A stretch of DNA of 64,000 bases from an uncultured Gemmatimonadaceae bacterium (GCA_963829055.1 CAWHHI010000016.1:928001-992000); one strand, 5' to 3'; shown: positions 1-64,000, counted from the stretch's first letter. Translations and numbers: made by a program. The notes: a model not told the origin generated them from the sequence alone.

Positions 1-1984
1 CGTCGAACGCCTCGGGGCTCATCTTGAGCATGCGCTCGAACACCTGCTCCGTCGTCGCGCCACGTCTTGTACGCGTTGAGCATGTCCACGATGGCGCGCG
101 GCCCGAAGTCGCGCTCGATCAGCTCGCCGACGAGCGACGCCTGGTAGTACGAGAAGATGAGCTGCTGCGGGTACGCCGGCCGCATGAAGCCGTCGTTCAT
201 GCGACTCACCTTCACCAGCCGCCCGGCCTTGTAGGCGGCGAGGAACTCCGGCGTCACGTCCGCGCCCCAGCCCTTCCGAGCGCGCCGCTCCTCGAGCACC
301 GACAGGCCTTCGGACAGCCACCGCGGCACGCGGTGGTCGCTCGCGCCTAACGTGAACGTGTGCGCCAGCTCGTGCCAGAACGTCGAGCCCCAGTTGAAGT
401 CGCCCGACGTCTCGCGCCGCCGGCGAGTCCATGGCGAGCGTGGTGCCGAAGCTCACGCCCAGCGCGCCGAGGCCCGCGAGACCGACGGTGCGCACCGAGA
501 AGTCCGCGTGGCTGCGATACACCTCGAGCCGGATCGGCGTCGGCGGCTTGTACTGGTAGCGCGCCGCCAGCGAGTCGTACGCCGCCTCCGCGAGCGCGCG
601 CAGGTACGTCGACAGGAGCTCCGACTCCTTCCCGTCGACCACGAAGCGGAACCGAGGCGACGTCGTCTCGCGATAATCCTTGAACGTGTCGAGCAGGTCG
701 AGCGTGTTCTTGATCCAGACGTCGTACGGATCGCCGGCGAACGCGCGGTCGAGATTCTTCCGCCCTTCATCCATCGCGCCGACGCGAAGCTGGTTCATGC
801 CCAGCACGCCGTACGCGCGCCACGCCGTCGAGTCGGCGGCGACGCCTTCGCGCGCGAAGTCGACCGCCTCGCGCGTACAGCCGGTTCCGCGCCGCCGCCT
901 CGGCGAGGTCCGTGAAGAAGTCCGCCGCCTTCGGATTGTGCGCGAGCGCGCGACGCTTGAGCGCGTCGAAGCCGGCGCGATCACCCTGCAGGTAGCGCGA
1001 CGGCCGCGAGCACGCTCATGCCCTCGACGAGCGTCGAGTCCGTGGCGAGCGCCTTCTCCGCCTCCGCCGCCGCTGCGACGTAATCCTCGCCGTCGAAGAT
1101 AGATGGAGCCGAGGAACGCGTGCAGCCGGCGCCGCGTTAGGGTTGACCTCGAGGCTCTTCCGCACGATGTCCGCCGCCGCACCGCTCCCGTCGAAGTACG
1201 TGACGCGCGCCGACGCAAGCAGCGCGCGCGGATGCCGCGGATTCTTCGCGAGCAGCGCCGCCACGCTCTTTTTCGCGTCGCCGCTGTTGTACTTGTCGAG
1301 GAACAGCTCGATCTCGCGGAGCTGCGCTTCCTGATTCGTCGAGTCGCGCGCGATCGCCTCGTCGTACGCCTTGAGCGCGTCCTTGAACAGCTGCGGGTTC
1401 GTGACGCCGAGATACCGGCACGCCGTCCCGACGGCCATGAGCTCGTCGGACGTCAGCGACCGCCTTGCGCGTGTTGTAGATGTCGATGAACCCATCGAGA
1501 TCCTCAGGGCTTCGGCGTGCTCGCCGCGATCGAAGCGGAGAACGTCGAGGTTCAGCCGAGCGGTGAGGCTGTCCGATGCATGACCCGCCATCGCGGCGCG
1601 GAACGCCGGCTTCGGCCTCCGCGGTCTTGCCGCGAAGACGCAGCACCTCGCCTAACGCGTTCTGCAGCTCCACGCCGGACGGGCCAGCGACGAACCGCTT
1701 GCCCGGCGTCCTCGGCGTCGGCGTACTTGCCGATCTCCGACAGCGTGCGCAGCAGGCCCGCGCCGACTCGCGACGGCCGTCGGCCCGTCCTTCGCGGCCA
1801 ACGTCCGGTAGATGGCGATCGCCTCGTCGTACTTGCCGCTGCGCTCGAGCTCACCAGCGCGCTTGAGCTCCGCCGGATCATCCTGCGCGCCCTGCGACGC
1901 CCACACGGGGCGGTCGTTCGCGCACGACACGCTCGCGACCGTCGCGAGCAGCAGCACGAATCGCATCATCGGCGCGTGAATCAT
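1..1984 (-). CDS. TPR-repeat protein with C-terminal peptidase MA-like (HEXXH) domain; frameshifted, runs off window start
   Basis: Pieced from ORFs 1652..1984, 1016..1591 and 19..1218. N-terminal signal-like segment (MMRFVLLLATVASVSC) and TPR-like helices. My translation near 290-390 gives FWHELAHTFTLGASDHRVPRWLSEGLS. Confidence 0.7.
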
Positions 1985-3016
1985 GGCCGACCTCCCGTCA
2001 CATCACGGATCGCCTTGTTCTTCTCGGCGAGCTGCACCAGGAGATCCTCGAGCGCCTTGCTCGTAGGCGGTCGAGTCCATGGCCGTCTTGCGGCGGCGCA
2101 GCGAATCGATGCTCGTTTCGATCGCAGTCCTTCTCGCGCTCGAGTGCAGCCACGCGCGGATCGCTCGATGCCCCGCGCGCGGCCGCGGTCGACACTCCCG
2201 CTGCGTCCGCCGAGAAACACGCGCCGAGCCAGCGCGCCATCCGCGGACTTCGCGTCGGGCGCGCGCCGTTCCTTTGTGATCGCCGTTGTCGTCGAGCTGC
2301 GCGTGCTCCGTGAGCATGTGGTTCTCGCTCTCGTAGGCGCGCGCGACTTCGCGCCGCGCGTACTCGAACGCCTCGAGCACCGAGACGCGGCCGTCCTTGT
2401 CCGCATCGGCCACGTCGCTCGCGTACGCCTGCACGAAGTAGGTCGCGAAGCGCGTCTGGTTGCTTCTCCATGTCCGACTTGGTCGCCGTCGCGATGACGC
2501 GATTCGGACCGGACAGCGTGGCAATGAAGCCGCCGCTCGCGCTCGCGGCGTTCACGATCGCGATGATCGGCCCGCCAACGGGATCGAGCATGCGCGCGAA
2601 GTCGGCCGCGGTGATGTCCGGCCCCGGCACGTTGAACTTCGACGTCGCCTGGTCGTCACCGCTACCGTGACCGATCAGCATCACGAACAGCACGTCGCCG
2701 GTTTTGGAGCGTGCGCCGAGCGCGGTGAGCTCGCGTTCGACGTTCTCCTTCGTCGACGCCGCCTTGATCCGCGCCGCGTCACGCGCCGGATTCTCCGCGA
2801 GGTACACGATGTCCGAGTCGGGCACGCCGAACCGCGTCTTGAGCGCGTCGATCATCGTCGTCGCCTGCTTGAAGAACACGTCGGCGTACTGCGGCTCGCC
2901 GGCGACGCCGCTCACGATCAGCACGCGCGCACGACCGGTCCTCTGCGCGCGCGCGACGCTGGCGCGCGCGCCGCGGCAGACACCAGGAGCGCGAGACACG
3001 CACGCACGATCCTCAC
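1981..3016 (-). CDS. Secreted caspase/C13-fold-like protein; frameshifted
   Basis: ORFs 1998..3272, 2003..2524 and 1981..2406 give VMLIGHGS...NAASASGGF and ADADKDGRVSVLEAF. GTG start overlaps the upstream stop; ATGA overlap with the next gene. Confidence 0.55.
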
Positions 3017-5308
3017 GCGAGCCCTCGCAGCTTTCGATAGCCCCACTCGCTCGTGATGAGCGCGATGAGCAGCAAGAACACGATCGGCATGTCCCACAGA
3101 TCCTTCCGGTCCACGACCGTGTTCCCCACATCGGTGAACACGATGTCCTTCGCGAGGTCGGCAACCTTGTCGCTCGTGTAGAACCGGCCGCCGGTTTCGT
3201 CCGCGATGCGCCTGAGGAGCGGCGCGCGCATCTCGGCACCGAAGTACTCGGTCGAGAGATCGCCCGACGCAATGTACGACCGGTCGCTCACGATCGAGTC
3301 GGTTCCCATTCGCGTCCGCACGTCGACGCTGTACAGCCCGCGCTCCGTCGGCGTGAATGACGTCTTGTACTCGCCGTCGCGCGTCACCGACCACTCGAGC
3401 GGCATCTCGGTGACGGTTCCGGACGGCGACGTCACACGCGCGACGGCCTCGGCGTTGTTCACCTTGAGGAACGTGCGGTCGGAGATCTCGGCGTTGAGCT
3501 CGACCGGATCGCCCGGCGACACCTGATCTCCCGGCGGCGGCGACCATGACACGCGACGGCACATCGTTCACGAGCCACCGAGCAACTGGCGCCAGAACGA
3601 CTCGAACGTCATGTCCTCGAGCGACATTGACGGGTCCATCTGCCACAGCCACGAGTCCTGGATCGGAAACACGATCGCCTTCCCGCGACCATAACGCTGG
3701 AACGCGAGCACGGTCTCACGATCGCCGCCCTTGGCCGGTGTCCCCGTCAGAAGCACCGTCGCACCGGGCTTCGCGCGCCCAATGCGATTCACGCTCGACA
3801 CCGGCGGCATCGTCTTCCACCGCTTGGCCGACAGGCTCTCGGCTTCGGCGATCTGCGTGGCCGCATGTAATCGCGCCCGGCACGGTCACATCGACCTTGA
3901 GCTCGCTGAAGTACGGCGTCTTGCTCTCGACGGTCCGCCGACGAGGTCGACCGGAAGCACTTCCGCCACCGGCGTTCCCGCAAAGCCGCCCTCGCCGAGC
4001 GCGCGGCGGCCGCCTAACGCCAGCAACCCGCCGCCGCGCTCGCTCACGAAATCCGCCAGCATGCGAAGCTGGTCGCCCGTGAAGTAGCTCGCCTCCATGC
4101 TGCCGAGGATGACGCCCTTGTACGCGAACAGCTCGTCGCGCGTCTTCGGAAATCCGGACACGAGATCGAGGCTGTCGTCGACACTGAAGCGCCGGAACTG
4201 ATCCTTCGCCAGCCGCTGCAGCGTGACGATCTGCAGGTTCTTGTCATCGCGCACGGCGCGACGCAGGAACGGCATTTCGGGCCGCGGCTCACCTTCGATG
4301 TACAGAATCTTCTCGCGACGATCGCTCACGTTCACGATCGCCTGCTGCGTGTTGTTCTGCGCGAACCATCTCGCCGGGCTGCGGCGGCGATCCGGAACGT
4401 GAGCACGCGCGCGCCGGCTTCGGTCGTTGGCACGCGAACTCGAATCGGAATCGCTTCACCGTCGCCGGACAGCGTGACCGACTGCGTGCTGACGATGCGC
4501 CCGCCGTCCTCGACGATCAGCTGCACCTTGTCGCCCCGTGTAGCCGCGCTGCGCGACCATTACGTCGACCACGAGCGACGCGCCCACCAACACACTCCGC
4601 GGCGCTTCGATGCGACTGACTTCGATGTCCTTCGTGAATCGCTCGCGACCGACGCCGACGGTGAACACCGGCACGTGCCGCGCGCCGAGCGACATCACCG
4701 CATCGGTGAGCGAGCCACGCGAGTTGTCCGCGCCGTCGGAGACGAGCACGAGGCCCGAGAGCGGTACGCCCGTGAGCTCCTGACGCGCCGATTCGAGCGC
4801 GGGGCCGAGCTGCGTGCGCACGCCGTCGTACGAGAGATCGCCAAGCTGCGCGACACGCTCGCCGTTGCCGGAGAAGCGAAAGAGCCGAACGACGAACTTC
4901 TGCGCGAGCGCCGCGTACAGCGAACTGTCGCGGCCGCCAAGCAGGTGGCGCACCGCGTCGGCGCGCGTGGCGCCGTTCAGGTCGGCGATGCGCATGCTGC
5001 GCGAGTCGTCCACCAGCACACCGACCACGTTGCGTTGCGGCACCGCCTCGGATACGACGAGGACCGGATGCAGCAGCGGCGATCGATGGCGAGCGCCAAC
5101 GCAGCGAGGCGCAACCCGATGCAGCACCGCACGGTCGCGCGGACCGCCGCGCATGCGCAACCGCGCGTATGCGATGAGCGCCGGAACGCCGATCGCCAGA
5201 GCGATCGCGATGACGATGTACGTGCGCCGGGCCAGCCGCGAACGCGAGCCGGCCCTTCTCGAACACCACGGGCCGGTACTTGAACAAGAACTCGAACAGA
5301 GCTTCCAA
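3013..5308 (-). CDS. Membrane protein with vWA-like and glutamine-amidotransferase-like domains; multiple frameshifts
   Basis: TTG start after GGAG (MEALFEFLFKYRP). MIDAS-like VLVDDSRSM...LVLVSDG, ILYIEGEPRPE and C-terminal LITSEWGYRKLRGLA across ORFs 4456..5160, 3886..4335, 3568..3810 and 3013..3564. Confidence 0.7.
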
Positions 5309-8194: not shown

Positions 8195-10790
8195 CTACAA
8201 ACGTGGATCCACCGGCTCGCTCTCGAGTGCGAGCACACCGAAGACGCACTCGTGCACGCGACGAAGCGGCTCGCCCCGTACGAATCGCTCGAGACCTTCC
8301 ACGCCAAGCGCGAACTCTCTGAGCGCCAGCGAGCGCTTGGAGGACAGTCCGCGCTGACGCAACCGCGCGAGATTCTCCGGGAGCGTGTACTCAGGACCGT
8401 AGATGACGCGGAGATACTCCCGGCCTCGGCACTTCACGGCCGGCTGTACGAGGCCACGCGGCCCGCGCGCGATGAACGACGCTGGCTTCACGACCATCCC
8501 TTCACCGCCACGTGATGTCATGTCCTCCCACCAGGCGGTCGCGGTCGCCTCGTCATCGGCACTGGCGAGATCGACCGTCCGATGCGCCGTAGTGAACAAC
8601 ACACCGGAGTCGTCCGCGGAGCACACGCCGCCGGCAGTCTCGAGATGCCACGCATGGTCCTTCGTCGTGTGCACGGCACCGGCGGTCGCGAGCACGTGGA
8701 AAGGCGCGAGCCTGAGGTCCGAGACGGACGCGACGGGCCAGCAATAGCGTCGCCACGCCTCCGTGTACCGCGTCACGAGCGCGTCACGCTCGCTGAAACG
8801 TTCGAGCAGCGCATCGAGACCAGAAGTACGATCACCCGCGGCGCGCAACGTCGCCACCGTCTCCGACAGCGCGCCCTTCGCTGCGGCCGAGACGGCGGCA
8901 TACTGCTGTCGGATCAGCTCCTGCGCCTTCGCGGACCACGGCATCAACTCACAGTCGAGCAACACCCAATCGGTCTCGAGGCGTGCCCAAAGGTCGGAGC
9001 CCTGCAACGCGCGCTGGAGAATGTCCAACAGCCCCCGCTCGAGCGCGACGTCATCGAAGAAACGACGGCCCGTGCGCGTGTAGATGAAGCCCGGCCCCTC
9101 ATCGACGATGCCAAAGCGACGGCGGGCGGCGTCCTCATCTCGGCACACAATGACCACCGCGCGGGAGCCCATGTGCTTCTCCTCGCACACGACGTTAGGC
9201 ACGCCGTAGCGCCGATAGTACGCGAACGCCTCGGTCGGGTACTCGAGGTACCCCTCGCGCGTCGACGTCTCCGAGGGAGAGATCGTGGGCGGCAGATACA
9301 CGAGCCACTTCGGATTCGCCGCGAACCGACTCATGACCTCGAGTGCCGCGGTCGCGTTCTCTTCGCGAATCGTGACGTTGTGATGCAACGCCGTCGCGAT
9401 GATGCGCTTCCCGGTGACATCCGCCAGATCGAGCACCTCGTCTTCGCGCTGCTGCGTGGACAGGCCGGCGGCGGCCGACGTGGCAGCAACCAACGGACGC
9501 GCAGGCTCGGCATAGACGTGCGCAGCCGGGACGGACACCAGTTCCTTCTCCGGCCATCGCAGTGCCGTCAGCTTGCCACCGAATACGCAGCCGGTATCGA
9601 TGTTGATCGTGCGGTTCAACCACTCGGGCTCGGGGACCGGCGTGTGACCGTATACCACGTGCGCAGGACCACGATATTCCGCAGCCCAGTTGTAGCGGAT
9701 CGGGCAGCCCGAATTCGTCCGTCTCGCCTGTGGTTTCGCCGTACAGGGCGAAGTCGCGCACTTTCCCCGACCCGCGGCCCTGCATCTCCTCCTTCATCCC
9801 GGCGTGCGCCACCACGAGCTTCCCGCCGTCCAGCACGTAGTGACTCACGAGTCCGTCGAGGAAGGCGGCGACCTGCTCGCGAAACTCCGGCGTCTCCCGT
9901 CCGAGCTGCTCGAGCGTCTCGGCCAGACCGTGCTTCACCTGTACGTCGCGCCCGCGCAGCGCCTTGACGAGCTTGAGATCGTGATTGCCCGGGCACGGCG
10001 AGCGCCGTGCCCGCGTTCGCCATCGTCATCGCGATGCGCAACGTATCGCTCACGCGAGGACCGCGGTCCACGAGGTCACCGACGAAAACGACCTTGCGCC
10101 CGTCAGCATGCGCGAACACGCCTAACGCGTCGCGCGCGTAGCCGAGCGCCTGCAGCAACGCCTCGAGCTCATCAGCGCAGCCGTGCACGTCGCCGATGAT
10201 ATCGAACGGACCGCGGTCGCCCTTCCGGTTGTTCCAGAGCGGCTGTCGTTCGATGGTCACCCGGGCGACGTCCTCAGGCGTGCGAAGGACGTGAAGATGA
10301 CGGAACCCTTCGCGCTGCAGGTTGCGCAGCGACTTGTGAAGTTGCCCGCGCTGCTGCCGTATCACGTGCCCGCCAAAGGTGCGATCCGCGCGCGCGCGGT
10401 TGCGCTCCTCGCAGACGCGCTCGGGCATGTCGAGCACGATCGCGACCGGCAGCATGTGATAGCGGCGCGCGAGCTCCACGAGCGGCTTGCGAGACTCGGG
10501 TTGCACGTTGGTCGCATCGACGACGGTCAGCAGGCCCGCCTCGAGCCGCTTGGCGGCGATGGTGTGCAGGACTTCGAACGCCGCCTTCGTCGCGCCCTGA
10601 TCGTTCTCGTCGTTCGAGACGAGTCCGCGGCAGAAGTCGGACGAAAGTGTCTCGAACGGACCGAAGTGCGTGCGCGCGAACGTCGACTTTCCACACCCGG
10701 ATGGACCGATCAGCACCACCAGCGACAGCTCGGGAATGGTGAGCGTGCGTGGTGGCGCGGGGCGAGATTGTCTAGCGTGTGCTCAGACAT
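8195..10790 (-). CDS. pnkp: Polynucleotide kinase-phosphatase (kinase / metallophosphoesterase / ligase-adenylyltransferase); frameshifted
   Basis: GPSGCGKS P-loop; [17 protein letters not shown] and IDTGCVFGG phosphatase motifs; [15 protein letters not shown] and KCRGREYLR ligase motifs; C-terminal EPVDPRL. Confidence 0.93.
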
Positions 10791-12216
10791 CGGCCACCGC
10801 GTTGCCAGTGCGTTCCGCGCGCTCGAAGACGGCCATCTGCGTCGGGGCACCGACATCCGGGTCCACGGGGCCGACGGCCGCGAAGCGAACGCCGTACGCG
10901 AACCGGTCCGCAACCGCGCTTCCCCACCGCTCGAACTCGGCGCGCGTCCACTCGAACCGATGGTCGCGATGCCTGAAGCGTCCGGCCGGTAATGAGGGCC
11001 ACCGCACGTTGTATTCGGCGTTAGGCGTCGTCACGACGAGCATTCGCGGACGCGCGAACTCGAACGCCACCCGCTCGAACGCGGCGAGCCGCGGACGGTC
11101 GAGATGCTCGATCACCTCGACCACGGCGGCCGCCTCGAAGTCGGCCAGCCGTGCGTCGCGATACATGAGCGACCCGTGGAGGAGCGTGATCCGTTCGCGC
11201 TGTTTCGGCGGCATCCGGTCGAGCTTCAACCGATCCGCCGCCGTCTCGAGCGAGCGGTATGAGACGTCCATGCCGACAATGCGCGTGAACTGGCGCTCGT
11301 CGAGCAGCCGTCGGAGCAGCCGGCCCTCGCCGCACCCGAGATCGACCACTGAGACGGCCCCGCTTTCGCGAATGGCGTCGGTGACCACCTGGAGCCGTTG
11401 CTCATGGAGGCTCAGCGGGCGCTCCAGCGCGCGCTCTTCGGCGTCGCGTTCGACGGGCGCGCCGGTGTCCTCGTCCGGATCGTCCTCGATCACCAGCCGC
11501 GCGATGGCATCTCGCACGAGTGAGTGACGATGCTTGAGGTAGCGGCGCGCGATGAGGTCACGCTCGGGGTGCGACGCCAGCCACCCTTCGCCATGCCGCA
11601 GCAGCTTCTCGACTTCGTCGTCACCCACCCAGTAATGCTTCTCGTCGTCCAGGACCGGGATCAGGACGTACAGATGGGTGAGCAGTTCCGCGACTCGCTT
11701 CGTGCCGTGTAGCGTGACGCTGAAATAGCGACTGAGACCCGCTTCCGGCGTGAACGCGTCCAACGGCGCCTGCGCCGCGATCACCGTGTAGCCGAGCGGC
11801 TCGAACAGCCGTCGCAGCAGGTCTTCGCCTCCCCGGCAGGGCACCGCCGCAATGTGGGCTTCGAGCGGTATGGCCGACGCGGCAAGCTCCGCGCGCTCCT
11901 TGCTCCGCCCCGCCATGGCGCTCGCGAACACCTCCGAGATGGCGACGCTGAGGAAGGATGAAGCCACATACGGCCGGTCGTTGACGTACTGGGTCAACAA
12001 GCCGTCGCCCCCAGTCGCGCCGCGTCCACGAACGAGTCCAACGGGATCGATGTCGAGGATCAGCGCCGCCGTGCAGCGGGCGTCCGACGCGTCCGAATAC
12101 ACGACGTGTGCCCGGCCGAAGGAGAGGTCGAAGCTCTGCGCACGCGACGGATGCTTGTGGAGCAGGTACCCCAGGTCGGTCGCGGGGCGATGGGTAGTCG
12201 TGATGGTGAGCAGCAT
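10783..12216 (-). CDS. hen1: 3'-terminal RNA ribose 2'-O-methyltransferase Hen1
   Basis: N-terminal MLLTITTT..PATDLGYLLHKHP and YVNDRPY; MTase VDLGCGEG, EVIEHL, TTPNAEYN and FRHRDHRFEWTRAEF; overlaps the pnkp start. Confidence 0.95.
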   Translation of the reverse strand: MLLTITTTHRPATDLGYLLHKHPSRAQSFDLSFGRAHVVYSDASDARCTAALILDIDPVGLVRGRGATGGDGLLTQYVNDRPYVASSFLSVAISEVFASAMAGRSKERAELAASAIPLEAHIAAVPCRGGEDLLRRLFEPLGYTVIAAQAPLDAFTPEAGLSRYFSVTLHGTKRVAELLTHLYVLIPVLDDEKHYWVGDDEVEKLLRHGEGWLASHPERDLIARRYLKHRHSLVRDAIARLVIEDDPDEDTGAPVERDAEERALERPLSLHEQRLQVVTDAIRESGAVSVVDLGCGEGRLLRRLLDERQFTRIVGMDVSYRSLETAADRLKLDRMPPKQRERITLLHGSLMYRDARLADFEAAAVVEVIEHLDRPRLAAFERVAFEFARPRMLVVTTPNAEYNVRWPSLPAGRFRHRDHRFEWTRAEFERWGSAVADRFAYGVRFAAVGPVDPDVGAPTQMAVFERAERTGNAVADV

Positions 12217-12468
12217 GCGAGGGCCTGGACGGAATACAAAATCGCGTCGCCGACGGTCACCCGAGCATTCTGCGCTCGGTAGCGATCGGACACGCGCCTA
12301 ACGCGCTGTGCCGGACGACTCGTGACGATCGGGACGCGACTCCCTGGGCTGGGAGTGTACGCGGCGTTTCGCCGCCCTGTCAAGGCGGGCCCTGGCGCCC
12401 GTCGGCTTCGTTAGGCGACCCCCGGCGCGACCTTGCGGTGCGCCCCGGGCGCGTTAGATACCCGATAC

Positions 12469-12858: not shown

Positions 12859-13156
12859 CGAGAGCAGAGGCGCCGCGTTAGGCATCGTGCCACCCCGTGC
12901 CCGCGGTGGTGAGTGCTGGTGGATGCCCTGTCACCGCTGGGTTCGCACGCGATCGGGGCCATAGCGGCCTTGGGCTTGCATGGGATTCAAAATAAGTGAG
13001 CCCAGGCAGTTCCTCCGGGAGCGAGCCCGGGGACGGTCCGGACCAGCCACGGTCCGACGGGCTTACCACGCCCGCGCTGATTTCGACATAGGCCCGGCAA
13101 GCGCTGACCCCTCTGCCGACGGTTGGTGACTCCCATGAGCGGCAGAGTTTGCGACT

Positions 13157-20604: not shown

Positions 20605-21954
<1,350 letters not shown>

Positions 21955-49434: not shown

Positions 49435-51731
49435 ATGGCTTCCACTGTTTCAGCCGATCTCGACTATCGGCCGTCGTATCTCGCGGCCGGCATCGCTTCG
49501 GTACTCGTGCTGACGCTCTACATCATCACACTGGCGCCTTCGACCGCCATGTGGGACACGAGCGAGTACATCGCCGCCGCGTACATCCTCGGACTGCCGC
49601 ACCCACCGGGCAATCCGTTCTTCGTGCTCATCGGGAAATTCTTCTCGCTGCTGCCGATCGCGAGCTCGATCGCCGCGCGCGTCAACATCCTTGCGGCGGT
49701 TTCGAGCGCCGTATCGGCCGGCATGTGGTTCCTGATCACCGAGCGCGTGCTCGTGAGCTGGTTCCCGCGTCGCTGGCAGCGTATCGCCGGCGGATCGGTC
49801 GCGGCGCTCATCGGCGCCACGGCCTTCACGGTCTGGAGCCAGTCGGTCGTCAACGAGAAGGTGTACACGGTCAGCCTCGTCGGTCTCGCGCTCTGCTCCT
49901 GGATCACGGTCCGCTGGTGCGACGAGCCCGATGGCTACAAGGCCGATCGTCTCCTCGTGCTCGTCGCGTACCTCCTGGGACTCGGCTACGCGAACCACAT
50001 GGCCGGCATGCTCGCCGCGCCGGCCGTCGCGATCGCCGTACTGATTCGCCGCCCGCGCACGCTGCTCCGCTGGAAGCTGCTGCTCGCGCTGGTAGGCGCC
50101 GCCTTCCTCGGCATCACGCCGTTCGCCACACAGCCCATCCGCGCCGCGTTCTTCCCGGCGATCAACGAGGGAGAGCCGACCGCCTGCCGCACGGAGCTCA
50201 AGGCCGACTGCACGTTCTCCGCGGGGACGTGGCAGGCGTTCAAGTACAACTTCAACCGCGAGCAGTACGGGAAGCCGCCGGTCATCGAGCGACAGGCGCC
50301 CATTCGGGGCGCAGATCGGGATGTGGTGGCTCTACTTCAAGTGGCAGTGGCTGCGCGACGCGCACGGCGAGATGCCCGCGCTTCAGGTGACGCTCGCGAC
50401 CGTCTTCCTCATACTCGGCCTGCTCGGCGGGTGGGTGCACTGGCAGCGAGACCGACGATCGTTCTGGTTCTTCGGTCCGCTGATGTTCACCATGACGCTG
50501 CTGCTCATCTACTACCTGAACTTCAAGTACGGGTATTCGCAGGATCCGGAGCTCGGCGACAACGTCGCGCGCGAAGTCCGCGACCGAGACTACTTCTACC
50601 TGTGGAGCTTCTCCGCCTGGAGCGTGTGGGCCGCGCTCGGGCTGGCGTACGTCTGGGAGACGATCGCCGCGCTCGTCGGGTCGGAAACCGTTAGGCTCGG
50701 CCGCGAGAGCCTGCAGATGCCGCGCAAGCAGAGCTGGCTCGTCGCCTCACCGATCCTCGCGCTCGCGTTCGTGCCGCTGTTCGGCAACTGGAACGCGGCG
50801 TCGCGGCGTGACGACACGACGACGCGCGACTTCGCCGCGGATCTGCTGAATTCGGTCGAGCCGTACGGCATTCTCGTCACCGTCGGCGACAACGACACGT
50901 TCCCGCTCTGGTACGCGCAGGAAGTGGAGGGCATTCGCCCCGACGTCATCGTCGCGAACACGTCGCTGCTCAACACCGACTGGTATACGCGGCAGCTCAT
51001 CCGCGCCCCAGTACGCGAGTACGATCGCCGCGAAGGGGCCGGCGATCTACCGCGGCGGAACTGGAAGAAGCCGTCCGGCCCGCCGGTCAACATGACGATG
51101 GATGAGGCGGACGCGATCCCGCTCGCGTACGACATGCGTGAGCCGCAACAGTTCACCGCCGGAAACATCCAGGCGACGATCTCGCCGCGCACGCTCACGC
51201 GCGCCGACATCTTCGTGCTGCGCATGATCAAGGACAACGTCGGACGCCCGATCTACTTCAGCCGCACCTCGGGTGGCTACGGCAGCCAGGAGTTCGGCCT
51301 CGGACCGTACCTCGTGACGCAGGGTCTCGCGCGAAAGCTCGTGCCGGACATTCCACGCGCCGCGAGCCGCGACACGATGCTCATCCCGGGCGAGGGCTTC
51401 GTCGACGTGAAACGCAGCACGGTTCTGTGGGACAGCGTGTTCCAGGCGCCGAAGTCCATCATCAAGAAGGGAGACTGGCCGGACCGCGCGTCGGTCGGCA
51501 TTCCCGCGCTCTTCGTGTCCACGGGGTTCATGATCGCGGAGGCGCAGCGAACACTCGGGAACGCGACCGAGGCACAACGCATCCTCGCCACGCGCTGAAG
51601 GCGTGGCGCGTGCGACGCGGCTGTCCGACCTGTTCAACGCGGTGCAACAAATGCCGCCGTTAGGCGCGGAAGGCGACAGTCGCGCGCTGCCGATTCCGTT
51701 GCCCGTCAAACCGGAGAGCGGAAAGAAGTAG
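49435..51731 (+). CDS. DUF2723-like GT-C fold membrane protein (frameshifted)
   Basis: LAPSTAMWDTSEY..LGLPHPPGNP, REVRDRDYFY and GDNDTFPLWY.Q.VEG.R.DV. Confidence 0.85.
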
Positions 51732-51845: not shown

Positions 51846-51879
51846 ACTCCGATGCTGGGCCGGGTTGCGCCTCGTCCGC

Positions 51880-52710
51880 CTAACGCGGCGTGAACGCGAT
51901 GCGGATCGACGTGATGTACACCGACGTCGATCCCTCGAACCCCGAATCGACGCCGACGACGAGCCAGAGCCGCCCGCTCGCGTCGGTGGAGATCGTGACT
52001 GGCGTCGCACCGCTATCGAACTCCTTGAGCTCGTACCTCGGCACCGCGCAGTTCGCGTTCGACGTCGCGATGTTGCCGAGCGGCGTAGCGTCGCGCCCGC
52101 CGGCGAGTTGGGAGCCGTGGTCGAAGTTCGCGCGATAGTACTGCGCGGCATCGACCACACGCCCGGGCTCCACGGACGTCGCACCGGCCTTCAGCACGAC
52201 CGATTCGCCCGGCGCGCCGCCGATGCCCACGCAGTTGCGCGGCGCGTTGGTCGCGAGCGTCACCCGGAAGCGCGCGTCGTACTGCGCGTTAGGCATGAGG
52301 CCCGTCACGCCGTGCGTGACGTACATGAACAGATCGTCGCTCCGGTTCTCGCCGCTGAGGCGAATGCCCTTGCGTGACACGTCGAGCGGCGCGGGCAGCG
52401 CCGCGAGCGACGCGCCGATCGCCCACTCGGCTTCCTTCCCCACCGGATAGTCGGTGAAACCCGCGACCCAGCCCTGGTAGTCGCTCGAGAAGTCGAACGC
52501 GATGTCGTAGCTGTCGTCGCTGATGCCTGTGGAATCGCCGCAGGCGCCGATCGTGGTCGCGAACACCGCGGAAAGCATCGCGATCGCGATGCGAGGCCAC
52601 ACGCGTCGCGGGTCGGGCGTCGCGTGGCGTTGGCCATCTCGTACTGCGTGGTGACTCATGATATGACGGCAACTCGGTCGGTGTGATTCCGGATGAGGCA
52701 TGGTGGACAC
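51880..52710 (-). CDS. Hypothetical lipoprotein (true start probably downstream of 52710)
   Basis: Lipobox IGAC; FTDYP, NRSDDLFMY and VGVDSGFEG. Confidence 0.7.
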   Translation of the reverse strand: MSTMPHPESHRPSCRHIMSHHAVRDGQRHATPDPRRVWPRIAIAMLSAVFATTIGACGDSTGISDDSYDIAFDFSSDYQGWVAGFTDYPVGKEAEWAIGASLAALPAPLDVSRKGIRLSGENRSDDLFMYVTHGVTGLMPNAQYDARFRVTLATNAPRNCVGIGGAPGESVVLKAGATSVEPGRVVDAAQYYRANFDHGSQLAGGRDATPLGNIATSNANCAVPRYELKEFDSGATPVTISTDASGRLWLVVGVDSGFEGSTSVYITSIRIAFTPR

Positions 52711-52815: not shown

Positions 52816-54550
52816 CTACTGCGTGCACGCGCCGTTGGGATCCGGCTTCGGCTTGTCGACAACCGGCCTGTGATCCAGGTCCGCGACGCGTACGGCGACG
52901 TCGCGAATGAACCGGGTGACACGCAGATACTGATCGAAGTCGAGATACTGCGGCTCGTCGGTCACCTGGTGGTAGTCGCGATGACCACCCGTGGTGAAGA
53001 ACACGATCGGAATGCCGTAGCGCGCATACATGTAGTGATCGCTGCGGCAGTCAGATGTTCTGCGGGTGTCCGTCGGCATCGAGGCCATAGTCGAGCGTGA
53101 GTGCGGCCTTCGTCTTCGTGTTGACGTCCTCGACGAGGTCACCGAGCTCCGTCGATAGCCGGCGCGATCCGATGAGCTGTACGTACCCTTCGTCGCGCCC
53201 GTGGAGCAGCCCGCCGTCCTTGCTCTGGCCAGTGATGTCGCTCGTGGCGCCGCGCCCGATCATGTCCACGTTGAGCTGCGCGACGATCGAATCGCGCGGC
53301 ACGGTCGGGTGATCGGTGTAGTAGCGCGAGCCGAGCATGCCTTCCTCTTCGCCCATGTGCCACACGAAGAGCAGCGAGCGCTTCGGCTTCTCCTTCGCGG
53401 ACGCGAACGCTTCGGCGATCTCGAGCACGCCCATCGAGCCCGAGCCATCGTCGTCGGCGCCGTTGTTGATCGAGTCGAGCCGGGCGGGGTGCAGCGCACG
53501 CAGGCTGTCGGTCATCGCGCGGATGCGCGCGATCTCGTCAGGCGTCGCCGGCCGAGGCGGACTGTCGGCACCCTGCGGCCTAACGACAGTGTTGAACACG
53601 CGGATCGAGTCGTGGTCGACGGCGCCGTTCGCGCGCACGCCGACGTGATCGCTGTGCGCGCCAATCGCGACGTACTCGCCCTTGAGCTTCGCGTCGCTGC
53701 CGGGAAGAATCGCGACCACGTTGCGGCCCGGACGTCGGGCGAGCACGAACTTCACGTTCAGCTGCACGCTCTTGCCCGGCGCGCCTTTCGCGGCCGATGC
53801 GACCGGCGCGCCGAGCAACGCCTCGCCCGCGGTGCTCGTGAGCTGAAGGAACGCCGGCGTCGTCGGTGCGGAATCGGGCACGAGCTGCACGAACGTCGAC
53901 GGCGTGAACGCGTTGAGGAGCGCCGGTCGCGAGAACTGCGGCGCCGCCGACCGTGGCGATCATCGCCGCCGCGCTGACGGTCTCCATGTAGCGCTTGTAG
54001 CCCTCGGACGCGATGAACGCCTGGACATCGACTCGGCTGCCCGGCCGCGGGACGCAACACCAACAGCTTGCCGCGCACCTGATCGGGCGTGAGCACGTTC
54101 GTGGTGTCGATCGCCTGCCGCCGTAGATGACGTCGAGCGTGCGCGTGATCGGTGGCATCCCGAGTGGCGCATTCGCCAGGAAATCCGCGCCCGGCTTGAG
54201 CATCTGTCTCGCCGATCTGAATCGTCGACGACTGAGTCCATCGTCTGCACGCCGAACGGCACATCCTGGAAGTAGGTGCCCTTGTCGCCGGCGGGCTGCA
54301 GGCCGAGTCGCTTGAGCTCACCCGCGATGTACTCGGTGCCCTTCATCGCTTCGTCGCTGCCGGCCATCCGCCCGCGCATGGAGTCGTCGGCGAACCGGTA
54401 GATGCGCGTCATGAGATCAGCGGCCGTGATCTCCGGCGTGGTCTTCTTCGGATCGAGCTTGAGCGGCAACGACTGCGTCGGATGCTGGGCCAGGGCGGCC
54501 GAGCCGGCGATGAACAGCGCCGTCGGAAGAAGCGTACGAATGGTCTGCAT
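52816..54550 (-). CDS. M28 family peptidase (multiple frameshifts)
   Basis: GAHSDH, NGADDDGSG, GEEEGMLGS, NVDMIGR, RSDH and DYHQVTDE. Confidence 0.9.
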
Positions 54551-55465: not shown

Positions 55466-55628
55466 GCCGTGCACCGGTGGGCGAGTGTCGAGCGAACATG
55501 CGCCGGGCGGCATCAGCGCGCTAGACCGCCGGCGCTGCGCAGGTCCGCTCCGCCGGGTCGCGATCGAGGCGCAGCGGCCCACGGTTGCCTAACGCGATAT
55601 TGTCGTCGAAGCACGCGCGCGCTCCCGC

Positions 55629-56446: not shown

Positions 56447-58165
56447 CTACGGGCGGTACGGATACCCTGTTGCCAACTCACGCTCCAGGCGAGCGTCATG
56501 CCCGTAAATGTCCGCGTAGAAGGCCGGCGCGCCATCCGGACGCACCACAGCCGTCGTGTAGTAGATCACCACCGGAAGCGAGCGGGCAAGATCCACGCGC
56601 TGCGAGCCAGCACCCTCCTCCATCGCGTGCCGGACACGTTCAGGCGACCAGGCGGCGGAATCGCGGAGCACCCATACGCCGAAGCGTGTCGGATCCTCGA
56701 GGCGAATGCACCCGTGGCTGAAGTCCCGCCGGGCTCGCGAGAACAGCTCTTTGGCGGGCGTGTCGTGCATGTACACGTTGTGGTCGTTCGGGAAAATGAA
56801 CTTCACCAGCCCGAGCGAGTTCCGCGGACCCGGTCGCTGCCGAATCCCGATCTCCCCTCGGCCAACGCGCGCAATGTTCGCTGTCGTTGCCGGCACCGCC
56901 GGGCCGGTGTCGCCGGAGCCGCGATAGAGCTCCATGTCGTTGCGCGCCAGGTACCCGGAGCTCCGACGCATCGCGGGGAGTGTTTCGCGCGCGAGGATGC
57001 CGGGTGGGATCACCCAATACGGGCGGAACACGGCGTACAGCATGTCGCGCTCGAAGATCGGCGTTCGCCGTCCGACGTTCGCAGCTCCCACGACCACGTT
57101 CATCGTGAACGTCGGCACGCCGCTCGCGCCTAACGTGTCGTACGCGTACAGCTCGAACGCCGGCACGTTCACGATCACGAACGGCCCGGCATCGGGCGCT
57201 GGGATCCAGCGGATCCGCTCCAGTGCGAGCTCGAGCTGCCTCGCGCGTCTCGCCGGCGACACGTTCAGCGCCGCGACCGTCGCCGGCCCCAGTGCGCTGT
57301 CGATCGGGAGGCCATGCCGCTCCTGGAACCGCGCGACGGCTGCGACCACGGCGCCCGTATAGTGCCGCGTGTCCCCATCGATGGCGGTGGTCGCATCAGT
57401 CGGCAGGTCGCCGAATACTGAGAGCCGCCGCCGCAGGACCGGCATCGCTTCGAGTGAATCGCCCGGACGAACGACGTGTTTCAGCGCCAACGTCGGGATC
57501 GTCGAGTCGGCCGCGAGCGCGCGGTACCGCGCGTAGATCGTCTTGAGGTTCCGGTACTGCACGAACTTGGGCTCCGCATCGCGAACCAGTGCGGATACGC
57601 GACCTCGCTCGAGCGCGTCACGTATGAATTCCGCCAGGTCCAACTTCTTGCGCTCGACGTTTATGCCGACCGCGAGGTGCCTCGGGTTCACGCGCCCGAT
57701 GCGCACATCGGACAAATGCCGGAGAATCCCGACGGAGAGCGCGAGGTCGAACCACGCCACATCGTGCGCCGCGGGACGTGGGTCCGCCGACAGCGCGTCG
57801 AATCGACGGCCAAGCTCCGGCGCGTCGTAGTCCTCGGACCGAAGCCCGCGTTCCTCCGCGCCGCGAAGCAGATCAATGACCGCGCGTGCATCCGCCGTAG
57901 GACGCGAACTCGCGGTCCAGATCGGCCGCCAGCCAGTGGCGGCGTAGAGCGACGTCAGCTCGTCGCGATAGTACGGAAAGCGAGGCCAACGCAGTCCCGA
58001 GAGCGTCCCGGCGCGTGACCACGTTTCGAGCAGCGACGCAGCGCTGTCATTGGCTGCCGTCGATGGTGGGCGACCCGACGGCGTCTGCGAGTACACTGGG
58101 CGCGAGGCCGTCGAGGCGGCGAGCGCGATTCCCAGTACGAACCATCTGTAGCCGAGTCGCATCAT
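56447..58165 (-). CDS. L,D-transpeptidase (YcbB/LdtD-like) with peptidoglycan-binding domain
   Basis: AVARFQERHGL..D PG-binding motif, IVNVPAFEL, LGLVKFIFPN, YMHDTP and FSHGCIRL. Confidence 0.93.
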   Translation of the reverse strand: MMRLGYRWFVLGIALAASTASRPVYSQTPSGRPPSTAANDSAASLLETWSRAGTLSGLRWPRFPYYRDELTSLYAATGWRPIWTASSRPTADARAVIDLLRGAEERGLRSEDYDAPELGRRFDALSADPRPAAHDVAWFDLALSVGILRHLSDVRIGRVNPRHLAVGINVERKKLDLAEFIRDALERGRVSALVRDAEPKFVQYRNLKTIYARYRALAADSTIPTLALKHVVRPGDSLEAMPVLRRRLSVFGDLPTDATTAIDGDTRHYTGAVVAAVARFQERHGLPIDSALGPATVAALNVSPARRARQLELALERIRWIPAPDAGPFVIVNVPAFELYAYDTLGASGVPTFTMNVVVGAANVGRRTPIFERDMLYAVFRPYWVIPPGILARETLPAMRRSSGYLARNDMELYRGSGDTGPAVPATTANIARVGRGEIGIRQRPGPRNSLGLVKFIFPNDHNVYMHDTPAKELFSRARRDFSHGCIRLEDPTRFGVWVLRDSAAWSPERVRHAMEEGAGSQRVDLARSLPVVIYYTTAVVRPDGAPAFYADIYGHDARLERELATGYPYRP

Positions 58166-58428
58166 GGCTGGCAGTCGGATGCACACACGTTAGGCGGTGC
58201 CGTGACCGGGAACGCCTGTGGACGCCGAACCAACGTCAACGCTCGCACGTCGATGCCGATTGCGGCATTGCACCTTGGGGCATCGCCGTGGGTGAGCGGC
58301 TCATGCGTGCGCACCCGCTCAACCGCTGGGGGCGACACGCCGTCTTCCCTGGGCGCTGATTTTTTGGTAGAGTTTCTGTCCCCCGTCGGCCGGCGCTCGC
58401 CCTCAGACCTCCTGTCTTCACCGTGAAG

Positions 58429-58994: not shown

Positions 58995-60458
58995 ATGACC
59001 ACCGCACTCCCCACTCCGCTCCGCCTCCGCTTCGCGCCGTCGCCCACCGGATATCTCCACGTCGGCGGCGCACGCACCGCGCTCCACAACTGGCTGCTCG
59101 CGCGAAAGTACGGCGGCGTGTTCCTGCTTCGCATCGAGGACACCGACCGCGCTCGCAGCACCGACGAGAGCACACGCGCCATCTTCGAAGGCCTGGAGTG
59201 GCTCGGCCTAACGTGGGATGAGGAAGTCACCTACCAGGGAGCGAATCTCGCGCGCCACCAGGCGGACGCGCGCCGCCTGCTCGACAGCGGCGCGGTCTAC
59301 CGCTGCTTCTGCACTCCCGCGGAGCTCGACCAGCGACGCGCGGAGGCCGAGGCGCGCGGCGATGCGTTCAAGTACGATCGACGCTGCGACCGCCTGGCGC
59401 CCGACGAGATCGATCGGCGCGTCGTGAACGGCGATCCGTTCGTGCTGCGGTTCCGCGTGCCCGACGGGTCCACCGAGTGGAATGACCTCGTCCACGAGCG
59501 GATCACGTTCCCGAACAAGGACATCGAGGACTTCGTCATCCTCCGGTCGGACGGCACGCCGATCTACAACATGGCCGTCGTCTCGGACGACATCGCCGCC
59601 GCCATCACGGTCGTGATGCGCGGGGACGATCACATCTCCAACACGCCGAAACAGATCCTGCTCTACGAGGCGTTAGGCGCCCGGATCCCGGTGTTCGCGC
59701 ACCTGCCGATGATCCATGGGACCGACGGCAAGAAGTTGAGCAAGCGCCACGGCGCTACCGCCGTCGGCGACTATCGCCACCTCGGCATCCTGCCCTCGGC
59801 CATGGACAACTTCCTGGCGCTGCTCGGGTGGTCGCCGGGCGGGGATCGCGAGGTCATGCTGCCGGCGGAATTGATCGACCACTTCTCGGTGGACGGCCTC
59901 CTCAAGAAGGCGGCTGTCTTCGACCTCAAGAAGCTGGAGTGGATGAACGGGCAACATCTCAACATGCTGCCGCTCGCGGACGTCGAGCCAATCATCACGA
60001 AATCCGTCGTCGCTGCCGGCCTCGCGACAGCCGATTGGTTGGCATCACACGGCGAGTGGTACAATCGGTTGTTGGAGCTGCTTCGCATTCGCGCTCGCAC
60101 CGTGGACGACGTGGTCCGCCAGGCGGGGCCATACTTCGGCGATGATGTCTCGCTCGACCCGGACGCGGTGGCCAAGCAGTGGAAGGACCCCGCCACGGCC
60201 GACATGCTGGCCGAGGCGCGGGAGGCGTTGGCGGCTGTCAGCGATTGGTCGGCGGCCGCACTCGAGGAGGCGCTCCGCCCAGTGGCTGAAGCACGCGGCA
60301 TTGGCGCGGGAAAGCTGTTCCAGCCGCTCCGCGTGGCTCTGACGGGGTCCGCAATCAGCCCGGGCATCTTCGACGTACTCGTGCTGCTCGGGCGCGATCG
60401 GTCGCTGCGGCGACTGGACGCGGCCCTGCGGAACCTCCGCGGCGATGTCGCGGTCTAA
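58995..60458 (+). CDS. gltX: Glutamyl-tRNA synthetase
   Basis: RFAPSPTGYLHVGG, LRIEDTD, RGDDHISNT and KLSKRHG. Confidence 0.97.
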   Translation: MTTALPTPLRLRFAPSPTGYLHVGGARTALHNWLLARKYGGVFLLRIEDTDRARSTDESTRAIFEGLEWLGLTWDEEVTYQGANLARHQADARRLLDSGAVYRCFCTPAELDQRRAEAEARGDAFKYDRRCDRLAPDEIDRRVVNGDPFVLRFRVPDGSTEWNDLVHERITFPNKDIEDFVILRSDGTPIYNMAVVSDDIAAAITVVMRGDDHISNTPKQILLYEALGARIPVFAHLPMIHGTDGKKLSKRHGATAVGDYRHLGILPSAMDNFLALLGWSPGGDREVMLPAELIDHFSVDGLLKKAAVFDLKKLEWMNGQHLNMLPLADVEPIITKSVVAAGLATADWLASHGEWYNRLLELLRIRARTVDDVVRQAGPYFGDDVSLDPDAVAKQWKDPATADMLAEAREALAAVSDWSAAALEEALRPVAEARGIGAGKLFQPLRVALTGSAISPGIFDVLVLLGRDRSLRRLDAALRNLRGDVAV

Positions 60459-61304: not shown

Positions 61305-61338
61305 ACGACCCGCGAGACAGCGCTGTCTCGCGGGTCGT
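61305..61338. terminator. Hairpin between convergent lexA and hypothetical gene
   Basis: ACGACCCGCGAGACAG-CG-CTGTCTCGCGGGTCGT. Confidence 0.65.
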
Positions 61339-61362
61339 TAGGCGACGGAAGGCAACGCGGCG

Positions 61363-63079: not shown

Positions 63080-63130
63080 TGCGGAGGAATGGCGTGAGGT
63101 GACGGCCGTGCTTGCGACCCGGGAGAGACG

Positions 63131-64000
63131 CTACTGACTCGAGTAGAATGCCTGAATCTTCTCCAGCACCGCGGGCCACTGGCCCACGAGACGACGAGCG
63201 GGCGGTAACGCGTCCAGCATCGTGCGACCGTATGACTTGGAGATGACGCGCGGGTCGACGAGAACGATGACGCCGCGGTCGGTTGCCGTGCGGATCAGGC
63301 GCCCGAACCCCTGCTTGAGACGCAGCGACGCATGCGGCAGCATGTACTGCCGGAACGCGTCGCCACCCTTCCGTTCGATCGACTCGCAATGCGCCGCCGT
63401 CACGGGCTCGCTCGGCACCTTGAACGGAAGTTTCGTGATGACCAGCGCGCGCAGTGCTCGGCCCGGAACGTCCACGCCTTCCCAGAAGCTCGCCGTTCCG
63501 ATGAGCACGGCGCGCTCGCTCTCGCGGAACCGCTGCAGGATCGCATCGCGCCCGTCCTCGCCGTGCACGAGCAGCGGCCAACGTCGCTCCGTTCCACGCG
63601 CGCGCAGCTCGGCCGCCACCAGTCGGACGTCGCGGTGACTCGTCGCGAGCACGAACATGCCGCCGTCCGATGCAGTGGCGACGTCGAGCACCACGCGGAC
63701 GACGAACTGGATGTGCGCCGGCGCATCAACGTTAGGCGCTGGCGCATTCGTCGGCACGGCGAGGCGGGAGTTCCCCGGGAAATCGAACGGCGATGGGTAG
63801 AGTGCCGTGCGTGGCGTGAGCTCCGGATCGTCCAGACCCAATCGTCGCCCGAGGAAGTCGAAGCGCTGCTCGGCCGCGAGTGTCGCGCTCGTCACGACGG
63901 CGGTGCGAACTCGACGAAAGAGATCCTCACGCAGAACGGGCGCGAGATCGAGCGGGACGGACGTCACCGCGATGTTGCGCTCCTTGCCGCGCACCTCGAT
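63131..64000 (-). CDS. dinG: DinG/YoaA family helicase, C-terminal part
   Basis: TSATL, SPFD, SFWEGVD, KLPF and QGFGRLIR; 5' end lies beyond the window. Confidence 0.9.
   Translation of the reverse strand: MEVRGKERNIAVTSVPLDLAPVLREDLFRRVRTAVVTSATLAAEQRFDFLGRRLGLDDPELTPRTALYPSPFDFPGNSRLAVPTNAPAPNVDAPAHIQFVVRVVLDVATASDGGMFVLATSHRDVRLVAAELRARGTERRWPLLVHGEDGRDAILQRFRESERAVLIGTASFWEGVDVPGRALRALVITKLPFKVPSEPVTAAHCESIERKGGDAFRQYMLPHASLRLKQGFGRLIRTATDRGVIVLVDPRVISKSYGRTMLDALPPARRLVGQWPAVLEKIQAFYSSQ

Follow-up and report, generated by a model that had tools for sequence, protein, structure and literature searches.

Why should one short, non-palindromic word recur dozens of times in an ordinary stretch of housekeeping DNA, and what could have written it there? 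The question is raised by a window of 64,000 nucleotides (GCA_963829055.1, CAWHHI010000016.1:928001-992000; G000:C16:928001-992000 in our numbering), by which we mean the whole stretch of DNA analyzed here, from an uncultured Gemmatimonadaceae bacterium whose assembly, G000, comprises 7.78 Mb in 20 contigs and is 86% complete. The element in question is the octamer GCCTAACG with its reverse complement CGTTAGGC, called the word below. It turned out to be enriched throughout the genome and in part of the order, and identical in all its letters to a recombination box of integron cassettes; the explanation that it works like a DNA uptake sequence, a tag spread by molecular drive, is one to which we give about even chances.

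A pattern search of the window returned 46 exact copies, 28 as GCCTAACG and 18 as CGTTAGGC on the plus strand (the latter being GCCTAACG on the minus strand), and every coordinate and strand listed in a first-pass annotation, made from the sequence alone, was correct. Dinucleotide-preserving shuffles of the window (n = 100) held 1.10 copies on average and four at most, which puts the enrichment at about 40-fold instead of the roughly 20-fold first estimated; the GC content assumed at that stage (about 69%) was also too high, as 65–68% was measured in the window and 67% in the genome. The hexamer core CCTAAC occurs 59 times in the window (shuffle mean 6.4), 13 times outside the full word, and the ten single-mismatch variants reported earlier with this core are all among these 13.

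The enrichment extends well beyond the window. Genome-wide, 5004 copies were counted (2457 on the plus and 2547 on the minus strand), spread over all 20 contigs at one per 1.56 kb, and the word ranks 14th among all 8-mers of G000 by abundance, despite containing TAA in a genome with 67% GC. Markov models of order 0, 1, 2, and 3 predicted 297, 131, 102, and 258 copies, respectively, while the expectation of maximal order was discarded as uninformative, its sub-words being dominated by the word itself. Under the order-2 model the word is by far the most over-represented 8-mer (about 50-fold, z about 480), and the runners-up are its own overlaps. When overlapping words were removed, nothing exceeded about 5-fold except an intergenic repeat and a family of variants around GCATAACG, a weaker second word that differs from the main one in one letter, occurs 583 times where 76 copies are expected, and often follows a T. 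The repeat (about 35–60 bp; 36418-36477 in the window) has copies of 90–97% identity on many contigs of five congeners and accounts for the next most over-represented 8-mers of G000.

Genes were called stop-to-stop with our own caller, based on GC at third codon positions (GC3) and a codon score, which gave 5775 crude calls covering 75% of G000 and leaves frame assignment approximate at the edges of open reading frames (ORFs). For a codon-preserving null, synonymous codons were shuffled within each called gene, so that proteins and per-gene codon counts were kept. The called coding sequences (CDS) contain 3274 copies, 21-fold more than the 158 ± 10 of the shuffles, and this null is conservative because the rare codons contributed by the word itself stay in the pool. 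No fewer than 7103 of the 20484 TAA/TTA trinucleotides of G000 fall in the hexamer core. The excess therefore outlasts both the codon- and the dinucleotide-preserving null. A basecalling artefact had been raised as a concern at the outset, and the word is no product of assembly errors either; the assemblies of six congeners hold 2501–5112 copies each, and a metagenome-assembled genome (MAG) with k141_ contig names, which we take to denote the short-read assembler MEGAHIT, holds 1991. In addition, contigs from four independent public studies (98–99% alike) cover the stretch of the window, and none of the best-supported 40 of their 486 differences lies in a copy.

The unit of enrichment is the octamer. 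Outside its eight letters, preferences are minimal (C or T favored before the word, G disfavored after it, at most 0.13 bit per position), and such near-uninformative flanks argue for an 8-mer and not for a longer element or a mobile repeat; the flanks also have a three-base periodicity, which reflects that most copies lie in genes. About two thirds of the copies are inside called CDS, at a density (1 per 1.8 kb) lower than outside (1 per 1.1 kb), and 1490 lie outside gene calls. All four stop-free frames are used, namely antisense nCG-TTA-GGC (1222 copies), sense nnG-CCT-AAC-Gnn (911), sense nGC-CTA-ACG (608), and antisense nnC-GTT-AGG-Cnn (483), and relative to called genes 1689 copies are sense and 1825 antisense. 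The word also supplies the stop codon of 187 of the 744 called genes ending in TAA and of 157 of the 1531 ending in TAG; coding potential downstream of these stops is no higher than after other stops, which marks them as real gene ends. The word thus acts at the DNA level and not at the protein or RNA level, given that it occupies every stop-free frame in both senses, stop codons, and non-coding DNA.

This comes at some expense to the genes. The codons spelled by the word are rare ones, yet the share of contexts written with it reaches 46% for x-Pro-Asn-[VADEG], 25% for [CSRG]-Leu-Thr, 22% for [SPTA]-Leu-Gly, and 10% for Val-Arg-(Cnn); 1530 of the 2964 TTA codons in called genes stand in [SPTA]-Leu-Gly contexts. 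Use of Pro-Asn as a dipeptide is slightly above expectation (observed/expected 1.38, rank 11 of 400), which hints at some non-synonymous cost. Among one-off variants, position 1 is graded (G 5004 > A 827 > C 428 > T 132) and inner positions have no excess; C-to-T variants on the word strand fall short of expectation (GCTTAACG 24 vs. 51, GTCTAACG 24 vs. 57, GCCTAATG 13 vs. 29).

The two orientations are used almost equally, as the genome-wide strand counts attest. On contig C16, where the GC skew switches near 550 kb, the G-rich form lies on the G-rich strand in 59% and 53% of copies on either side, i.e., in 367 of 665 copies (55%) overall, in agreement with the initial remark that there is no strict strand polarity. 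The copies are distributed more evenly than at random: in 2–5 kb windows their counts have a variance/mean ratio of 0.81–0.84, gaps between neighbors below 200 bp are depleted (215 vs. 611 expected), and those of 500–2000 bp are in excess (2776 vs. 2246 expected). The observed/expected pair correlation is 0.09–0.27 below 100 bp, 0.38–0.50 at 100–200 bp, 0.67–0.79 at 200–300 bp, and about 1 beyond 500 bp, with near-identical values for direct, convergent, and divergent pairs, so that each copy is surrounded by an exclusion zone of 200–300 bp regardless of orientation. To whatever reads the word, another copy only a few hundred bases away apparently adds no benefit, and the even spacing together with the exclusion zone fits a tag of which one per fragment, in either orientation, is enough.

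The word turns over by substitution among relatives. All seven genomes of the genus carry it, and the congeners, syntenic with G000, are only 74–83% identical to it in DNA. In window positions 20001-40000, three sites keep the word in all five aligned congeners and the others are variably present; alternative states at homologous sites differ by 1–5 substitutions, with an alignment gap at one site alone (24651, in G003). In 49 comparisons of one site in one genome, the word persisted 21 times (vs. 18–21% for all 8-mers), although neither the relatives nor the comparisons are independent of each other. In a codon alignment of thrS (11 genomes, four genera), synonymous codons spell the word at conserved residues (AVR, GLT, RVR, SLG, and TLG), two genera have it at the same AVR site, and the word-poor G152 has ordinary codons at those residues and zero copies. 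The individual word copies of the window are as follows (position, strand, context).

345..352, +, antisense to a called gene, nCG-TTA-GGC (Leu-Gly)
1650..1657, +, 5' boundary of a called ORF, the word's TAG bounding the frame
4012..4019, +, antisense nCG-TTA-GGC (Leu-Gly)
9193..9200, -, sense nnG-CCT-AAC-Gnn (Pro-Asn), Pnkp ligase gene
10120..10127, +, outside called CDS
11019..11026, -, sense Pro-Asn frame, Hen1 gene
12296..12303, +, ORF boundary
12409..12416, -, ORF boundary; convergent with 12296 at 121 bp, hairpin not convincing
12876..12883, -, outside called CDS
15295..15302, +, outside called CDS; convergent pair with 15367
15367..15374, -, outside called CDS
16707..16714, +, antisense Leu-Gly frame
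17472..17479, +, ORF boundary
19587..19594, +, outside called CDS
20971..20978, +, antisense Leu-Gly frame, enolase; kept in 5/5 aligned congeners
24651..24658, +, antisense nnC-GTT-AGG-Cnn (Val-Arg); missing at the homologous site in 5/5 congeners
26219..26226, +, outside called CDS; within 105 bp that contigs from two public runs replace by 42 different letters
28398..28405, +, antisense Leu-Gly frame; 2-4 of 8 letters differ in congeners
29440..29447, -, sense Pro-Asn frame; missing in 5/5 congeners
30632..30639, +, antisense Leu-Gly frame, 3-hydroxyacyl-CoA dehydrogenase; kept in 5/5 congeners
31191..31198, +, outside called CDS; 3/5 congeners keep the copy
32021..32028, +, outside called CDS; 3-5 of 8 letters differ in congeners
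32647..32654, -, sense nGC-CTA-ACG (Leu-Thr), thiolase; 4/5 congeners keep the copy
35168..35175, -, Pro-Asn frame, TonB-dependent receptor gene
36265..36272, +, antisense Leu-Gly frame
37427..37434, +, antisense Leu-Gly frame
38015..38022, +, antisense Ser-Leu-Gly, thrS; exact in 2 congeners, one-off in 3
42256..42263, -, Leu-Gly frame, valS
43217..43224, +, Pro-Asn frame, valS
44061..44068, +, outside called CDS
44916..44923, -, Val-Arg frame, selA
47508..47515, -, ORF boundary
48017..48024, +, Pro-Asn frame, purH
48806..48813, +, Pro-Asn frame, purH
50689..50696, -, Val-Arg frame
51658..51665, -, outside called CDS
51878..51885, +, outside called CDS
52287..52294, -, Pro-Asn frame
53578..53585, +, Val-Arg frame, M28 peptidase gene
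55587..55594, +, ORF boundary
57128..57135, +, Leu-Gly frame, L,D-transpeptidase gene
58188..58195, -, outside called CDS
59206..59213, +, Leu-Thr frame, gltX
59671..59678, -, Leu-Gly frame, gltX
61336..61343, -, ORF boundary
63730..63737, -, Pro-Asn frame

The genes around these copies (enolase, SHMT, thrS, valS, gltX, selA, purH, the TonB-dependent receptor, and the Pnkp/Hen1 pair) make the window an ordinary housekeeping stretch. In public data its enolase has its nearest relatives in soil MAGs that carry the label Gemmatimonadaceae, and 20 public runs from 16 studies (rhizosphere, soil, freshwater sediment) hold DNA 98–99% identical to positions 20001-40000, from which we conclude that the species is widespread. 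Some local details were recorded alongside. The Pnkp ligase/kinase-phosphatase gene adjoins the Hen1 methyltransferase gene (8198-12297), the two forming a bacterial RNA-repair pair. The gene of the TonB-dependent receptor is broken in two (35173-35279), with plug and barrel in ORFs of different frames, and one base at 35211 is missing from the public contigs of three studies, so the split is probably a single-base assembly frameshift; further one-base differences from the public contigs, which come from four studies, are found at 25238, 29361, and 33678. Short intergenic runs of a 6–7 bp unit flank thrS (37463-37506 and 39449-39492) and recur on many contigs of the congeners; tandem heptamer runs resembling them occur in loci L024 and L032 of other phyla.

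In order to see how far the word reaches, it was counted in 301 genomes of the order from 90 genera (G000 included), with 400 or more copies as the threshold for word-rich genomes; the tallies include the unpublished genomes G013, G089, G209, and G263, on which no specific claim depends. A check of relatives had been proposed in the first-pass annotation, and it found the word in the whole genus (7 of 7) and at or above the threshold in 28 of the 300 other genomes of the order, namely 23 of 140 in the family and 3 of 139 and 2 of 21 in two sister families. Most of the remaining genomes hold fewer than 50 copies, below the count of a reversed control word, while abundance among word-rich survey genomes is graded from about 450 to 4469. 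G014 has 6360 copies in 5.1 Mb (one per 0.8 kb), and a 219-kb sample of it agrees with G000 in the 8-mer, in its weak flank preferences, and in its one-off variants. Outside the phylum, the Bryobacteraceae genome behind locus L027 holds 73 copies against 561 of the control, so the word is not enriched there. The patchy and graded distribution suggests that the determinant is often gained and lost.

G000 itself offers an internal negative control. Three blocks of 31–50 kb at contig ends (C6:5441-55037, loci L149-L151; C11:1-46789, L152-L154; C6:591809-623330, L155-L156; GC 66–73%) and one of 10 kb are free of the word, with 0 copies in about 128 kb. These blocks hold ftsK, aroC, folD, pepA, and rpe, second copies of which elsewhere in G000 are just 47–59% identical; on account of these divergent duplicates the blocks are probably foreign DNA joined into the assembly, and a status as genomic islands was rejected.

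The first-pass annotation knew of no sequence matching the word, which in one respect did not hold. All eight letters are identical to the inverse-core box of attC, the recombination site of integron cassettes, in cassette arrays beside integron integrase (IntI) genes of the order (G021:C80, G021:C95, G019:C3), and the word also lies within the attC consensus of published primers, where the degenerate primers designed on conserved attC regions end in the same letters (relevant part of PMC2669170). In the arrays each unit terminates in a typical attC site, which starts with the 8-mer and closes 80–120 nt further on with the complementary 7-mer, mostly after a T; the reverse complement of the word is the attC core box minus one letter. 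In word-poor genomes most copies sit in such one-strand arrays, every 500–700 bp (26 of 27 copies on one strand in the first 23.7 kb of G021:C95), and the array on G021:C80 ends at the integrase gene. Polarity and a repeat protein were considered for these arrays and rejected, as they are integron cassette arrays. The arrays of these relatives (L141 and L142, G021:C95:1-30000; L143, G021:C80:1-7400; L145, G019:C3) are large and their attC sites very uniform; at least 26 cassettes fill 24 kb in one array, and a broken integrase gene adjoins one.

G000 is different in that the word is rarely part of such a site. Only 86 strand-wise box pairs lie 40–150 nt apart, 12 of them hairpin-like, which leaves few attC-like sites, so that over 98% of the 5004 copies stand alone in ordinary DNA. 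A cassette was considered for the alpha/beta-hydrolase gene at 36243-37506 of the window, which is present in G000, G003, and G004 and missing from the locus in G001, G002, and G005; two word copies flank it, but so do ordinary intergenic repeats, there is no attC structure, and the idea was rejected. G000 has an IntI of its own (C20:208041-208958, 265.7 bits). In a further ORF (C4:2853-3344, L162; 143–164 amino acids), an integron-type integrase is represented by its N-terminal SAM-like domain alone; there is no catalytic domain nearby, and the ORF lies downstream of small unannotated ORFs. As a similar fragment was seen only in G002, this stand-alone domain was rejected as a general reader.

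Integrases scoring above the family cut-off were found in 18 of 31 relatives irrespective of word count. Word-poor genomes with IntI include G007, G008, G009, G011, G012, and G016, as well as G152, which has two above the cut-off and one just under it; the word-rich G212, G280, G002, and G004 have none above it, and in G014 the gene is broken. IntI alone does not explain the enrichment, though the identity with attC is too exact to dismiss and suggests a reader that shares its specificity with integron site recognition.

Three explanations were offered at first, namely a signal for uptake of self DNA, a nucleoid or segregation protein, and a process linked to modification. Of these, the uptake signal agrees best with the genomic signature, and modification is weakened, as neither Vsr nor the methyltransferase families searched track the word. 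The word matches known uptake sequences in density, strand balance, use of all frames, cost in rare codons, substitutional turnover, graded variants, orientation-independent spacing, and sharing among relatives. As an uptake tag, GCCTAACG/CGTTAGGC would be a short double-stranded signal read in either orientation by a DNA-import component, most likely in the type IV pilus/ComEA/ComEC competence route and less likely at another step of horizontal transfer. Tagged fragments from the same or related species would be imported more often and then recombined, alleles spelling the word would thereby replace alleles without it, and over time this drive would write the word wherever selection tolerates it, i.e., at synonymous positions, in stop codons, and in spacers. 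The reader would act on incoming DNA, and drive, rather than selection on each copy, would maintain the word. Speculatively, a reader with attC specificity would favor the import of gene cassettes as well.

Several observations weigh against an uptake tag. The genes of G000 include those for ComEC, DprA, a ComEA-like helix-hairpin-helix (HhH) protein, and, beside aroK/aroC, an AMIN-type PilQ, but competence genes are equally present in word-poor relatives (ComEC in 31 of 31, the secretin in 30 of 31) and thus do not explain which genomes have the word. The neighborhoods of PilQ and ComEC contained no specific receptor candidate, and a Xer-like recombinase near pilQ was rejected as the reader, being present in word-rich and word-poor genomes alike. 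Distribution is patchy even between close relatives: in genus g40, G152 has 66 copies against 3244–4141 in G124, G156, G212, and G280, a 60-fold difference. All known members of the Neisseriaceae and Pasteurellaceae, in contrast, carry some uptake dialect, and no alternative dialect word was seen in 14 Gemmatimonad loci, word-poor relatives included; two dialect candidates from other phyla (L024, L032) were rejected as tandem heptamer repeats and not dispersed words. The exclusion zone of 200–300 bp is shorter than typical recombination tracts. Finally, a plain uptake-sequence model does not predict exact identity with attC, which may point to an intracellular reader.

Such a reader is at the center of an explanation that we consider unlikely, in which the copies are selected binding sites of an intracellular protein, either an IntI-like recombinase or other reader of the attC box (for which the copies would be genome-wide landing pads like attG/attI, or a sink that absorbs IntI) or a nucleoid organizer occupying 200–300 bp. 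It draws on the eight-of-eight identity with the attC box beside the IntI genes of the order, on the IntI and few attC-like sites of G000 itself, and on the exclusion zone, which, being blind to orientation, could be the footprint of a bulky nucleoprotein. IntI, however, is as frequent in word-poor as in word-rich genomes, and variants that fit the degenerate attC consensus are not enriched in G000 (GTCTAACG 24, GCTTAACG 24, GCCCAACG 254 vs. 434 expected). Most copies lie inside housekeeping genes, where the insertion of a cassette would be harmful, selection could hardly hold out against codon bias at 5000 separate sites, and we know of no way in which a recombinase would generate in-frame point substitutions by mutation. 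IntI does insert cassettes at double-stranded genomic attG sites, but the attG consensus given in the relevant part of the same source is just GWT (bioRxiv 10.1101/2022.09.11.507474).

Rather unlikely, in our judgment, is a reading in which several soil lineages independently tuned their DNA import to the near-universal end of attC and became cassette scavengers, the copies in their own genes being a by-product of the same bias applied to kindred DNA. The determinant would then be mobile, possibly cassette-borne, which would account both for congeners that differ 60-fold and for the gradation in abundance from genus to genus.

We find it doubtful, more so than the foregoing, that the word is a Chi-like signal for an AddAB-type helicase-nuclease, which would protect linear DNA, promote recombination, and spread with incoming DNA. 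The word is a frequent, non-palindromic 8-mer, the mechanism would likewise bias transfer and hence produce drive, and on contig C15 two PD-(D/E)xK nuclease-domain matches lie 3.6 kb apart, as is expected of an AddAB-like pair, which G000 probably has. Nevertheless, there is almost no replication polarity (the 55% co-orientation on C16), close copies are avoided equally in like and opposite orientations, which is unexpected if the orientations serve different DNA ends, and known Chi sites fall far short of a 20- to 50-fold excess against codon usage. A search for RecC in G000, which is 86% complete, gave no match.

Quite improbable is a mutational drive linked to modification or repair, as in models of HIP1 and very-short-patch repair, in which one enzyme, a methyltransferase, would mark the word and another, a mismatch endonuclease, would turn near-matches into it. 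The deficit of C-to-T one-off variants on the word strand would suit such a drive, and so would an abundance similar to that of HIP1. The enzymes do not follow the word: Vsr and C5 methyltransferases were found neither in the seven genomes of the genus nor in G014, and searches limited to these methyltransferase families gave no match to PF00145, PF01555, or PF02384 (C5, N6/N4, and N6 DNA methyltransferases) in G000 at its stated completeness and no N6/N4 or N6 match in G267, G302, G124, or G280, whereas the word-poor congener of the latter two, G152, has both. Moreover, the word is not palindromic, and local repair does not predict avoidance within 200–300 bp. An artefact of codon usage, a dispersed repeat, basecalling, or assembly was tested and rejected, for although G000 has single-base indel differences from public contigs and chimeric foreign blocks, the excess is 21-fold over a protein- and codon-preserving shuffle, flanks are not conserved, thousands of copies occur in independent assemblies of six congeners and in many other genera, and word-supplied stops behave as true gene ends.

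To our knowledge, sequence-specific DNA uptake is known experimentally from just two proteobacterial families. If the word is indeed an uptake tag, it would be a third independent case, in an abundant and barely cultured soil phylum, and DNA self-tagging would be more widespread; the word would then serve as a genomic marker of DNA-exchange partners in soil. The identity of tag and attC box links natural transformation and integrons, two gene-acquisition systems that have been studied apart, and in Vibrio cholerae transformation is reported to deliver cassettes into a chromosomal integron (relevant part of PMC12614218, 2025). A practical use is the flagging of foreign blocks in MAGs, as with the misjoined DNA of G000. 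String and keyword searches of the open-access literature found no description of the word (among the matches listed, the exact strings occurred only in primers and constructs), and a keyword search of that literature found no paper joining a Gemmatimonad with an uptake sequence.

Among known systems, dispersed repeats of the repetitive extragenic palindromic (REP) or miniature inverted-repeat transposable element (MITE) type are unlike it, as the word has no conserved sequence beyond its core and about two thirds of its copies lie in CDS. Chi and the FtsK/SpoIIIE-orienting 8-mers KOPS and SRS resemble it in being non-palindromic, about 8 bp long, and over-represented chromosome-wide, but they are strongly co-oriented with replication, whereas the word is 55% co-oriented, its avoidance is orientation-blind, and its excess is much larger. 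HIP1 of cyanobacteria, which surfaced as a positive control in the cyanobacterial locus L038 (16 copies in 21 kb), is likewise an octamer written into genes by substitution at about one per kb. Its abundance is variable among relatives, and the literature links it to cognate methyltransferases; HIP1 is palindromic, unlike the Gemmatimonad word, which no methyltransferase of the families searched tracks. Of the integron sites attC, attI, and attG, which IntI reads, attC has the letters of the word as its inverse-core box, and IntI is able to use double-stranded genomic sites (relevant part of bioRxiv 10.1101/2022.09.11.507474), but more than 98% of word copies are single, have no partner box or hairpin, lie in housekeeping genes away from IntI, and are born by substitution.

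The closest likeness is to the DNA uptake sequences (DUS) of Neisseriaceae and the uptake signal sequences (USS) of Pasteurellaceae. DUS is read by the minor pilin ComP in Neisseriaceae. The Gemmatimonad word differs in its phylum, in an 8-bp core almost without flank preference, in its patchiness even within genera, in word-poor relatives that have no detectable dialect, and in being an integron recombination box. What it shares with them is a short, non-palindromic word at about one per 1–2 kb, equal on both strands and free of replication polarity, with copies in spacers and in several frames of genes, even spacing, graded variants, an origin by point substitution, and presence in relatives (relevant parts of PMC1939737 and PMC2817400). 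Known uptake sequences run to thousands of copies, with 1471 in H. influenzae and 1965 in a Neisseria genome, many inside ORFs, evenly spaced and without orientation bias (relevant part of PMC1939737).

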